From sequence record OR352941.1: 64,000 bases of DNA; one strand, 5' to 3'. This document shows positions 34,486 to 38,838 of the stretch, piece by piece. Position numbers and translations under genes: made by a program. The stretch is from Escherichia phage AV111. How positions within the stretch are numbered: position 1 is the stretch's first letter; every line of letters starts with the position of its first letter. The notes beneath the pieces were generated by a model. The model did not search any database. It saw only the letters and a list, made by a program, of their open reading frames with translations, and was not told where the DNA came from.

Positions 34486-34794
34486 TTACATAAGAAGCAA
34501 ACGTTCTACCGGAGTACCATCAACCGAAATTACTTTATCAAGGCGGAAAGAACGCCACTGGCCTAACTTGGTATCGAATGCTCGAACTGATTCACGAGGT
34601 TCATAACGAACTTCTGTTGCCGGATTGTTATTTTCATATTTGACTTCAAGTTCATCGCGGGAGGCAAACATCGTACGAACATCACCGTTAGCCTTTTCAA
34701 ATACAACACAATGAACGCCTACAGACAGAATAGTTTTAATACGTTCACGAAGAACCATAGTTTCTTGTTCAGTTAAAATCATATTATTCACCAC
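34486..34794 (-). CDS. Hypothetical protein
   Basis: 102-aa ORF between cd and gene 31. Confidence 0.55.
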   Translation of the reverse strand: MVNNMILTEQETMVLRERIKTILSVGVHCVVFEKANGDVRTMFASRDELEVKYENNNPATEVRYEPRESVRAFDTKLGQWRSFRLDKVISVDGTPVERLLLM

Positions 34795-35365
34795 AAAAGT
34801 TTCGGATTTGTTCCCAATTCAGAGAACGAAGATTATTACGAGAGTACTGAATTACTTCAATACCGGCTTGTTTTAGAATGTCTGCCCAATTTTCAGGAGA
34901 TCTGTCATATAATTCTGCGTATACAACCTTTTTAATACCTGACTGTGTAATAGCTTTAGTGCAATCAGGACATGGAGAAAGCGTCGTATACAACGTAGCA
35001 CCTTCAATAGAATTACCTTTACGAGCTGCAAACAAAATTGCATTCAGTTCCGCATGGATTTCATTATTAGCAGACCATGCACTATGAGCGGCCCGATGTT
35101 CTTTAGCCAAAACAAAATTATCTGCCCGTCCAAATGCTGTAGTGCCTTCTTTATGCCCAGCAACGATGACCGGGCTTGGTTTATTCTTCAACCAACCGTT
35201 TTCGGATGCATGTTCACAACAGTTAACACCACCGGCCGGGCTACCGTTATACCCAGTAGAAATAATGCGCCCATCTTTTTCAATGACTGCGCCAACTTTC
35301 CATGAACAACATTTTGATTCTTGAGAAATCAGATATGCAATCTGAAGGTATGTGCTAGCTTTCAT
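34784..35365 (-). CDS. cd: dCMP deaminase
   Basis: 193 aa (T4 Cd 193 aa); cytidine/dCMP deaminase zinc motifs HAE and PCxxC. Confidence 0.92.
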   Translation of the reverse strand: MKASTYLQIAYLISQESKCCSWKVGAVIEKDGRIISTGYNGSPAGGVNCCEHASENGWLKNKPSPVIVAGHKEGTTAFGRADNFVLAKEHRAAHSAWSANNEIHAELNAILFAARKGNSIEGATLYTTLSPCPDCTKAITQSGIKKVVYAELYDRSPENWADILKQAGIEVIQYSRNNLRSLNWEQIRNFCGE

Positions 35366-36357
35366 TATTGAACCTTATTAATATAAGTTAACAGCTCTTT
35401 AGTTTGTTCCCAACTGATGCACGCATCGGTAACGGAAACGCCATAGGACATATTATCAGAAATTTTTTGATTTCCTTCATGTAGGAATGATTCTATCATA
35501 ATTCCTTTGACCAAATCATTAGCTGCTAAATTTTTACCAATACCAATTTGATTGCTATAATGCCCAGCAGCGTTTGCATGGCTACAGTCAACCATTACAT
35601 AATGATTCAGACCTACTGCACTTGCTTTGTTAGAAGCTTCTTGAATATCAGAAGAATGATAGTTCGGGCCGTTGGTCCCGCCACGCAATACGATATGCGT
35701 ATTCTGATTACCTTCAGCTTCAACAATGCCTACAGTACCATCGACGTCCATACCCATATACCGATGTGGCCAGGCGGCACTATACATCGCGTCTGTAGCT
35801 ACTTTAATAGAACCATTGGTTGCGTTCTTAAAGCCTACGCACATCGGTAGACCTGAAGCAATTTCACGATGTGTCTGACTTTCAGTCGTACGGGCTCCAA
35901 TAGCAACCCATGAGAAAATACCAGAAAGATACTTAATCGTGAATGGGTCTAATACTTCAGTTGCTAATGGAAGTCCCATACGTAGAAGTTTACGACACAA
36001 TGTTCGTGCAACTATAAGACCGTGGTTCATATCAAAACTTCCGTCAAGATATGGATCATTTACAAGACCTTTCCAACCTACGGTAGTTCGAGGCTTTTCA
36101 AAATAAACGCGCATCACTAACAGAACATTAGGAAGACGAGTTTGAAGTTCAGCCAGACGTTTGCCGTATTCAACAGCAGCAATAGGGTCATGAATTGAAC
36201 AAGGACCTACAACAATAAGTTTGCGTGGGTCTTCACCGTTCATAATCGAATTAACTTGTTCGCGATGAGAAGCCACTTGTGATGCGTAAGCTTCCGACAA
36301 AGGAATAATCTCAGCCAGTTCTTTTGGAGAAATAAGTTTTCTGACGACAGGTAACAT
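35365..36357 (-). CDS. 3-deoxy-D-arabino-heptulosonate-7-phosphate (DAHP) synthase, class I (AroG/AroF/AroH-like)
   Basis: 330 aa; collinear with remembered E. coli AroG over its whole length (LIVVGPCSIHDP, VMRVYFEKPRTTVGWKGL, AIGARTTESQ.HRE.ASGL, GFKN, ILRGG); stop overlaps the cd start (TAATG). Confidence 0.88.
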   Translation of the reverse strand: MLPVVRKLISPKELAEIIPLSEAYASQVASHREQVNSIMNGEDPRKLIVVGPCSIHDPIAAVEYGKRLAELQTRLPNVLLVMRVYFEKPRTTVGWKGLVNDPYLDGSFDMNHGLIVARTLCRKLLRMGLPLATEVLDPFTIKYLSGIFSWVAIGARTTESQTHREIASGLPMCVGFKNATNGSIKVATDAMYSAAWPHRYMGMDVDGTVGIVEAEGNQNTHIVLRGGTNGPNYHSSDIQEASNKASAVGLNHYVMVDCSHANAAGHYSNQIGIGKNLAANDLVKGIMIESFLHEGNQKISDNMSYGVSVTDACISWEQTKELLTYINKVQ

Positions 36358-36477
36358 AACAATCCTTAGGAGATATAAACAGATTCTGATTCAACAATAC
36401 CTTTAACCGGATTAGACAGGCTAAGTTGGTAGTGCTCAGATTTATGACCATTCTCGATAGTAATGAGATAGCTCTCA

Positions 36478-36714
36478 TTATAGTGTTCCATATACTCGAG
36501 TTGCTTCAACAAGACCATCACTGCCTAATTTAAGATTAGTAATTTGGTCACCATCTTTAGGATTAACGATTATGAGAAAAGAACGTGGAGATTCTTGAAT
36601 AACTCGTAATGTTGCATCTTGGAAACGTTCAGACACTTTATTGATGAGTGCTTGAGCAAATTCTTTTACTTTAATCTGAAATTCGTGTACTGTAATTGGG
36701 TTTTCACTTAACAT
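36478..36714 (-). CDS. Hypothetical protein (cd.x cluster)
   Basis: 78-aa ORF with early-type promoter at 36741-36770. Confidence 0.5.
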   Translation of the reverse strand: MLSENPITVHEFQIKVKEFAQALINKVSERFQDATLRVIQESPRSFLIIVNPKDGDQITNLKLGSDGLVEATRVYGTL

Positions 36715-36740: not shown

Positions 36741-36770
36741 ATAGTATCACAACTCCACCGCGTTGTAAAC
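36741..36770 (-). promoter_or_regulatory. T4-early-type promoter
   Basis: Minus-sense GTTTAC-N18-TACTAT. Confidence 0.55.
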
Positions 36771-38538: not shown

Positions 38539-38539
<1 letters not shown>

Positions 38540-38838
38540 TATTTGATTCCTAAGAAAGCTTCAAGAATACGAATGTTGAGTTCGCGCCGGTCTTTATTAA
38601 TTTCAGCAACGTTTTTATTAATTGACGTACTTCTAACGTTTGAAGAAATAAATTTAATCATATGACTTTTGAGTTGTTGCAAATCCAACCCTTTTTCTTT
38701 AGCAGCTTTACGAAGAGCTTTACCTGCTTCATCTAGTGCCTTTGCTGCATCTTTGTCATAATTGCCAGGTGACATTCCACGACAGATATCAACATACTCA
38801 TCAGACCGTTTGATGTAATTCTCTAGTAATGTTTTCAT
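38539..38838 (-). CDS. Hypothetical protein (pseT.x)
   Basis: 99-aa ORF with early-type promoter (GTTTAC-N18-TATAAT) at 38866-38896. Confidence 0.5.

Follow-up and report, generated by a model that had tools for sequence, protein, structure and literature searches.

The 64,000-nucleotide stretch of Escherichia phage AV111 analysed here (record OR352941.1; the whole stretch is called the window) belongs to a Mosigvirus (RB69-like) genome. On its minus strand, at 35365..36357, it carries an open reading frame (ORF) of 330 amino acids (aa) that was assigned, based on profiles and a structural model, to the type I-alpha, AroF-like synthases of DAHP (3-deoxy-D-arabino-heptulosonic acid 7-phosphate), abbreviated DAHPS below. 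The closest described enzymes are AroF (6AGM) and AroG (1KFL) of E. coli, which belong to the same family and share its fold and chemistry. In AroG, the residues Q151 and S180 touch the inhibitor, D155 is credited with a stabilising effect on that site, and P150L, S180F and F209A/S are feedback-resistant variants (PMC9529685). Feedback resistance through P150L and through changes at Q151 is described in two papers (PMC9529685, PMC5791370), and AroF loses its tyrosine sensitivity when Gln152 is changed or Ile11 is deleted (PMC5791370).

Two further systems are relevant to the possible role of the phage gene. The DNA of RB69-like phages has its cytosine replaced by arabinosylated 5-hydroxycytosine, and in these phages deoxycytidine monophosphate (dCMP) is hydroxylated by a ThyA-like enzyme dependent on flavin mononucleotide (FMN) and O2 (PMC13326640), called here the 5-hydroxy-dCMP (5hodCMP) synthase. 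[quoted passage not shown]

The phage gene itself is already known and is not a discovery. It is at least 95% identical at the DNA level (about 99%) in 139 deposited phage records, in many of which it is named phospho-2-dehydro-3-deoxyheptonate aldolase, DAHP synthase, aroF or AroG, and the Mosigvirus aldolase of PHROG 5045 is the same gene at the same pseT-cd locus, for which the records give only the name. The gene call adds nothing, since far more than a hundred deposited phage genomes already name it. Full-text literature searches found no functional study of any phage DAHPS, and one genome paper lists a DAHPS domain in passing (PMC8022965). What is worth following up is its altered feedback site together with its association with a hydroxylase of the prephenate-dependent type, which is exclusive among the T4-like matches.

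Family and catalytic site

The 330-aa ORF matched the Pfam family PF00793 at E=7.4e-75 with 251.8 bits (cutoff 25.5), the NCBIfam aroFGH model TIGR00034 with 427.4 bits (cutoff 173.2) and NF009395 with 455.7 bits (cutoff 343). The cutoffs of the equivalog models for AroG (NF006723, 364.9 vs 568) and AroH (NF009396, 385 vs 463) were not reached. The best solved relative was E. coli AroF 6AGM (E=1e-104), and the global identity was 51% to AroF, 49% to AroG and 44% to AroH. The ORF also matched PHROG 5045 (E=5e-182), classed in PHROGs as an auxiliary metabolic gene. The original prediction, made from the letters of the sequence and a list of ORFs, had named a phage-encoded class I DAHP synthase; the PF00793 search, TIGR00034 and the match to 6AGM all place the ORF in that family.

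The catalytic residues were compared in an alignment of 28 phage-clade sequences with 98 cellular homologues (E. coli AroF, AroG and AroH and 95 others). Both motifs pointed out earlier are present. GPCSIHD, at aa 51-57 (36187..36207, minus strand), contains the metal ligand Cys53 (AroG Cys61) and is invariant in 28/28 phage-clade and 98/98 cellular sequences, while KPRT, at aa 88-91 (36085..36096, minus strand; AroG K97-T100), binds phosphoenolpyruvate (PEP) and the phosphate of erythrose-4-phosphate (E4P). The other metal ligands lie within 35425..35580 of the minus strand and are His260 (35578-35580), Glu289 (35491-35493) and Asp311 (35425-35427), aligned to AroG H268, E302 and D326; all four ligands are invariant in the 28 clade members. 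Together with the PEP and E4P residues R92, K97, P98, R99, T100, R165, K186 and R234, all of which are kept, the AroG positions C61, H268, E302 and D326 make up the 12 residues checked, and 12/12 are identical in all 28 phage-clade sequences, which span 55-99% identity. The AlphaFold2 (AF2) model of the phage DAHPS has a predicted local distance difference test score (pLDDT) of 94.2 and a template modelling (TM) score of 0.96, with a root-mean-square deviation (rmsd) of 1.3 Å, against both NmeDAH7PS and AroG. It is a (beta/alpha)8 barrel with the beta6a/6b hairpin, whose strands are formed by residues 198-203 and 209-214.

The view that the enzyme looks catalytically intact was therefore borne out at the level of single residues, as none of the Cys, His, Glu and Asp ligands is lost. 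The phage ORF appears to encode a working DAHP synthase, which would form DAHP from PEP and E4P; this is the starting point of a wider explanation whose chances of being right or wrong we consider balanced.

The feedback-inhibition site

A scan made without regard to function, covering the columns at least 90% conserved in the phage and in the cellular groups, found that only 6 of 104 such columns differ between the two groups: AroG P150I, Q151K, D155G, S180P, F209Y and T223A. Four of these six are published AroG feedback-resistance positions (hypergeometric P=1e-4 for at least four), and the new residues I, K, G, P, Y and A are each 96-100% conserved across the phage clade. On the minus strand of the window, the altered allosteric segment with Ile141, Lys142 and Gly146 (AroG P150, Q151 and D155) lies at 35920..35937. 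The further switches, also clade-specific columns, are Pro171 (AroG S180; 35845-35847), Tyr200 (AroG F209; 35758-35760) and Ala214 (AroG T223; 35716-35718), together spanning 35716..35847.

The N-terminus is altered as well. It is 9-10 residues shorter than in AroF and AroG, and the alignment shows that the part encoded at 36328..36357 (minus strand) lacks the arm bearing D6/D7 in AroG and N7/N8 in AroF. All phage members have 48-52 residues ahead of the catalytic Cys, compared with at least 58 in 98/98 cellular homologues. The phage N-terminus cannot be longer, because the ORF opens at the first possible start codon, an ATG, past an in-frame stop.

Relative to AroF and AroG, the regulatory site has thus been rebuilt: the N-terminal arm is gone, the inhibitor contacts P150, Q151, S180 and F209 have become I, K, P and Y, and D155 and T223 are replaced too. 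The AroF-type Gly at the position of AroG S211 is shared by the phage enzyme. With its inhibitor positions switched and the arm missing, the phage DAHPS is probably insensitive to tyrosine, phenylalanine and tryptophan. Its switches fall at the same positions as the engineered changes P150L, S180F and F209A of AroG and Q152I and delta-Ile11 of AroF (PMC9529685, PMC5791370), so the same effect would be expected, with carbon entering the shikimate pathway unchecked. Unlike the engineered mutants, the phage enzyme combines several changes with the N-terminal deletion, and the combination is fixed across the phage clade. A natural DAHPS uniting changes that engineers make singly is a candidate feedback-free enzyme.

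The comparison of feedback residues, which had been proposed along with the original prediction, proved the informative part of the analysis, with the catalytic site unchanged and the allosteric site altered. Judged by its sequence, the phage enzyme is a type I-alpha DAHP synthase by catalysis, not by regulation.

Distribution and a possible role in cytosine hydroxylation

A tblastn search with the phage DAHPS returned 212 records. Outside Mosigvirus, copies with 58-77% identity were found in Erwinia phages, in Providencia and Morganella phages and in five genera, namely Kanagawavirus (Enterobacter, Edwardsiella), Marfavirus (Klebsiella), Winklervirus (Serratia), Kagamiyamavirus (EcS1) and Bragavirus (Proteus). 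In Mosigvirus, Marfavirus, Bragavirus and Kanagawavirus, the gene occupies the same place, between pseT with the small cd.x ORFs and cd. The Escherichia matches fall only into two identity bands, at least 95% (Mosigvirus) or 60-80% (EcS1), so none of them comes from Tequatrovirus. Neither a T4-like Acinetobacter phage nor Dhakavirus was among the matches.

The GC content at third codon positions (GC3) of the phage DAHPS gene is 0.287, close to the 0.294 averaged over the phage and unlike the 0.50 of E. coli aroF, and its relative synonymous codon usage (RSCU) correlates with that of the phage genes at 0.895, compared with 0.29 for aroF. Both measures agree with the earlier claim that the composition is phage-like and argues against very recent acquisition; the phage codon usage, like the location in a lytic phage, sets the gene apart from aroF and aroG. 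The 28 phage-clade sequences are monophyletic (neighbour-joining bootstrap 93/100) and nearer AroF than AroG or AroH. Among cellular proteins, the nearest ones belong to mixed phyla and reach no more than 52-55% identity, and the donor lineage is therefore not identifiable. The phylogeny suggested for tracing a donor thus showed only the monophyly of the phage clade and did not reveal where the gene came from. Between genera, dN is 0.18-0.40, dS is 1.3-2.1 (saturated) and dN/dS is about 0.14-0.19, and on these substitution rates the phage DAHPS is under purifying selection.

In the isolate vB_EcoM_G53 (MK327943, L013), the DAHPS gene contains a frameshifting 55-bp tandem duplication at gene columns 693-747, and the record labels it a misc_feature; the duplication represents a natural knockout or else an error of the assembly. 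Aeromonas phage HJ05, which has 79 kb and is not T4-like, encodes an independent DAHPS of 387 aa with 39% identity (L010:4899-6546). The next gene downstream is an Acb2/Tad1-hairpin anti-defence gene, a methyltransferase and an asparagine-synthase-like ATP-pyrophosphatase are encoded nearby, and no U32 or chorismate mutase gene was found within 5 kb of this DAHPS gene. Two faecal contigs labelled 'UNVERIFIED Bacteriophage sp.' (MT837466, L022, and MT838377, L023) were rejected as sources of phage DAHPS, as they look like bacterial chromosome fragments because of the BCCT transporter, choline-binding repeat, Wzz and GH25 genes aboard. The short 'Acinetobacter phage MD-2021a' contigs were likewise rejected, their genes being of bacterial type.

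The genes associated with DAHPS belong to the cytosine-modification cluster, which lies outside the window and was read in related phage records. In Mosigvirus, this cluster encodes a 386-aa Peptidase_U32 protein (PF01136, E=7e-11), whose gene is separated from that of the 5hodCMP synthase by a single ORF; in the Bas47 record, the U32-containing cluster is at 95397-96793 of MZ501056 (L011:5398-6794, minus strand). The U32 proteins of three genera scored 42-45 bits with PF01136 (cutoff 22.4). The alignment by hhalign with RlhA, UbiU and UbiV (E=1e-5) placed E161, C169 and C176, which are essential in RlhA (PMC5727448), at E186, C203 and C209, and phmmer against the PDB sequences gave nothing significant. 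Compared with RlhA, the U32 protein of the phage has diverged: its motif contains an insertion of 10 residues, and it has its own conserved C-terminal Cx4Cx3Cx2C. Its identity across genera is 82-89%, which is above that of DAHPS.

A chorismate mutase (PF01817, 41-45 bits) is encoded in Kanagawavirus and Winklervirus by an ORF that lies between the U32 gene and the ThyA-like gene and overlaps both; the overlapping U32/chorismate mutase/ThyA-like operon lies at L016:3489-5592 in Entb_45 and at L017:3492-5697 in LC53. A tblastn search with the phage chorismate mutase found it in 51 genomes from nine host genera, with the ThyA-like gene adjacent every time. All four genes (ThyA-like, U32, chorismate mutase and DAHPS) are present in Kanagawavirus, Marfavirus, Winklervirus, Kagamiyamavirus and the Providencia/Morganella phages. 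Mosigvirus, the lineage of the window, and Bragavirus (Proteus) have the ThyA-like, U32 and DAHPS genes and no detected chorismate mutase, while Tegunavirus (Yersinia) has the ThyA-like, U32 and chorismate mutase genes and no DAHPS; for Bragavirus and Tegunavirus, the ThyA-like gene is taken from the literature (PMC13326640). Dhakavirus JS10 and the T4-like Acinetobacter phages (KARL-1) have the ThyA-like 5hodCMP synthase and no DAHPS, their 5hodCMP synthase clusters contain no U32 or chorismate mutase gene, and no Acinetobacter phage was among the U32 matches.

The U32 protein was found in 221 records and DAHPS in 212, with nearly equal host-name profiles (U32/DAHPS: Escherichia 136/124, Klebsiella 26/25, Proteus 7/7, Serratia 7/6, Enterobacter 4/4, Providencia 3/3, Edwardsiella 3/3). 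Both occur in one genome in Entb_45, PEi26, EcS1, PhiKpNIH-6, R3_1, phiP4-3 and PSTRCR_127, and no T4-like phage with DAHPS and without U32 was found among the matches. Yersinia phage TG1 (L024:16336-18809) has U32 and chorismate mutase, its pseT-cd gap being filled by four small ORFs and no DAHPS, and would be a natural comparison case for the proposed prephenate pathway. The study of the RB69 pathway labels RB69 gp50, the homologue of the U32 protein, a 'sugar or heterocycle reductase' and makes no mention of U32, prephenate, chorismate or DAHP (PMC13326640).

The explanation that we favour, and to which we give an even chance, is that the phage DAHPS supplies chorismate and prephenate to the phage U32 protein for the production of 5-hydroxycytosine DNA. 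Its more specific form, in which DAHPS would be the entry valve of a virus-run prephenate line permitting O2-free hydroxylation of cytosine C5 in enteric T4-like phages, falls somewhat short of an even chance. The deregulated DAHPS would first reopen the host shikimate pathway whatever the level of tyrosine, phenylalanine or tryptophan, also at times when the host's own enzymes are repressed and inhibited by aromatic amino acids. The host enzymes AroB-AroC would then carry DAHP on to chorismate, the phage encoding no other shikimate enzyme (none is annotated in the reference Mosigvirus genome), and in most genera an unregulated phage chorismate mutase would push the carbon to prephenate. The U32 protein, as an Fe-S protein, may use this prephenate to hydroxylate cytosine C5 in surroundings free of O2 such as the gut. 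A route driven by prephenate would be of use in anoxic hosts, because the known hydroxylase depends on O2; such a route would run parallel to the FMN- and O2-dependent ThyA-like enzyme in the way that TrhP parallels TrhO.

By analogy with RlhA and TrhP, a U32 protein and prephenate would thus provide an O2-free route to a 5-hydroxypyrimidine beside an O2-dependent alternative. The phage system would differ from them in that its parts are virus-encoded and that its proposed target is deoxycytidylate or DNA, genome-wide. A rough estimate of the demand, based on about 64,000 cytosines per genome and a burst of 100-200, is about 10^7 hydroxylations per cell, which would be a sizeable share of the normal prephenate flux. 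The CmoA reaction turns prephenate into phenylpyruvate (PMC5727448); phenylalanine formed from prephenate by way of phenylpyruvate would shut down AroG and PheA, and this would explain the need for insensitive enzymes. Of the two roles put forward in the original prediction, the supply of an aromatic precursor fits better than a drain on PEP and E4P, with prephenate rather than amino acids as the likely precursor. The link to U32 and prephenate was at first set aside, as the published hydroxylase is FMN- and O2-dependent, and it was revived by the Pfam match to U32 and the matching distribution. A connection of DAHPS with the 5hodCMP synthase alone was rejected as too broad, since Dhakavirus and the Acinetobacter phages have the synthase and no DAHPS.

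Several observations weigh against the prephenate explanation. RB69 gp48 and a deoxynucleoside monophosphate (dNMP) kinase are enough for the aerobic formation of 5-hydroxydeoxycytidine (5hodC) (PMC13326640), so U32 is not needed under air, and even for TrhP the part played by prephenate, as a stoichiometric donor of oxygen or as a mere cofactor, is unsettled (PMC6599085). In Mosigvirus, the slot of the chorismate mutase is held by an unrelated 79-aa ORF (Bas47, L011:5398-5637, minus strand), in which Pfam, NCBIfam, BLASTP and hhalign detected no similarity to any family. Since Tegunavirus has U32 and chorismate mutase without a DAHPS between pseT and cd, DAHPS would be an optional booster at most, and the frameshifted copy of the G53 isolate suggests that it is dispensable in culture. 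Dhakavirus infects E. coli, a facultative anaerobe, without U32. Because the phages are related, the co-occurrence of DAHPS and U32 goes back to few independent gains and losses. Finally, the switched feedback residues are themselves conserved, which would also fit a new effector site.

The main rival, which we consider possible at roughly half the weight of the prephenate explanation, is that DAHPS is a general auxiliary metabolic gene, as its PHROGs label says, providing more aromatic amino acids, or folate and quinone precursors, after host shut-off, with no link to DNA modification. An intact and probably feedback-insensitive enzyme would serve this purpose, feedback-resistant DAHPS being the standard means to raise the shikimate flux in engineered strains (PMC5879953, PMC9529685), and the location in the frd-td-nrdAB-pseT-cd region fits it too. 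However, it leaves unexplained why DAHPS is restricted to T4-like phages that carry U32, as the highly abundant Tequatrovirus, Dhakavirus and T4-like Acinetobacter phages lack DAHPS despite equal needs for protein synthesis, and why many of the phages with DAHPS have a chorismate mutase gene tied to the cytosine hydroxylase gene.

It is unlikely that the altered pocket binds a different effector, such as a nucleotide or an intermediate of a phage pathway, which would place the enzyme under the control of phage-relevant signals. The six switched positions show no drift within the clade, and the beta6a/6b hairpin that forms the site is retained in the AF2 model, but the site has lost the arm by which the neighbouring subunit closes it, structural packing could equally cause the conservation, and no result points to a ligand.

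Less likely again is that DAHPS serves as an irreversible sink for E4P and PEP, drawing pentose-phosphate flux towards ribulose-5-phosphate for nucleotides and for the arabinose of the DNA, with DAHP as waste. Mosigvirus does need UDP-arabinose (UDP, uridine diphosphate) derived from ribulose-5-phosphate (PMC13326640), and its DAHPS lies among nucleotide-metabolism genes. Against this, the Klebsiella Marfavirus and Proteus Bragavirus have DAHPS without the arabinose-5-phosphate isomerase, the isomerase is found in 57 Acinetobacter phage records that lack a T4-type DAHPS, and a drain on E4P would waste carbon that the non-oxidative branch otherwise turns into pentoses. A direct tie of DAHPS to arabinosylation was rejected on the same grounds, as the distributions of the isomerase and DAHPS do not track each other.

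A shift of substrate, in which arabinose-5-phosphate and PEP would give an octulosonate like 3-deoxy-D-manno-octulosonate-8-phosphate (KDO8P), or a decaying passenger gene is very improbable: PF00793 and a PEP-using TIM-barrel aldolase are common to DAHPS and the KDO8P synthase KdsA, one isolate has a frameshifted copy and several lineages lack the gene, but all E4P, PEP and metal residues of AroG are invariant, the KPRT motif for the E4P phosphate and the Cys metal ligand distinguish the phage enzyme from KdsA, the score is above the aroFGH equivalog cutoff, no KdsA model was matched at E<=0.001 (NCBIfam), and the gene is under purifying selection with synteny kept across at least four genera.

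Locus, expression and significance

In the window, DAHPS lies in the frd-td-nrdAB-pseT-cd region, directly ahead of the dCMP deaminase gene cd (193 aa; 34784..35365, minus strand). The original prediction had described a gene absent from T4 and set among early nucleotide-metabolism genes, and this description holds, as the T4 genes pseT and cd are separated by nothing but cd.1-cd.5. The overlap of the DAHPS stop with the cd start as TAATG is also real: it lies at 35363-35367 (minus strand), with the DAHPS TAA at 35367-35365 and the cd ATG at 35365-35363. As to the translational coupling to cd derived from it, a conserved functional coupling did not stand. T4 cd.1 and cd overlap likewise, while DAHPS and cd are separated by an HNH homing endonuclease in Marfavirus and by two small ORFs in Bragavirus, so TAATG reflects the usual T4 packing.

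A Shine-Dalgarno sequence, AAGGA, read at 36363..36367 (minus strand), ends 5 nucleotides (nt) before the DAHPS ATG and overlaps the stop of a 41-aa ORF. This ORF (36366-36491) and a cd.2 homologue (36478-36714) are two small upstream ORFs of the same transcription unit (36366..36714, minus strand). About 385 nt upstream of DAHPS, a consensus scan found an early-promoter homologue at 36741..36769 (minus strand), with GTTTAC, a 17-nt spacer, TACTAT and an upstream TG, and visual inspection aligns each base of this segment with the region annotated in T4 as early promoter Pe133295, between cd.3 and cd.2. It is followed without gaps by the cd.2 homologue, the 41-aa ORF, DAHPS and cd, and a scan found no terminator-like site on the minus strand between the promoter homologue and cd. 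The number of sigma-70 promoter-like sites near DAHPS was no higher than in shuffled sequence, and for this reason only the T4-homologous promoter was used. We infer that a T4-type early promoter would drive the expression of DAHPS early in infection, as part of one packed unit with cd.

Further features were observed around the locus. In Klebsiella phage P545, the ORF between DAHPS and cd is an HNH/NUMOD3 homing-endonuclease ORF (L007:5980-6549). A 99-aa ORF upstream of pseT in the window (38539-38838, minus strand) has the annotation 'putative homing endonuclease' in Bas47, whose record is collinear. MotA-box-like sites of the form TGCTTNA-N11-13-TANNNT number 13 in the window, where 4.0 would be expected, and the minus strand holds 12 of them, which fits T4-type middle promoters. 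No tRNA or Rfam family was found in the window.

The distribution of DAHPS suggests that the virus takes over the shikimate pathway for a DNA base and not for amino acids, and that the 5-hydroxycytosine phages may own a separate, O2-free hydroxylation route suited to the gut. If this is true, it would assign a function to RB69 gp50 and provide a tractable system for the unresolved chemistry of the U32 hydroxylases, and it would connect a pathway of central metabolism with the hypermodification of phage DNA and with anti-restriction.

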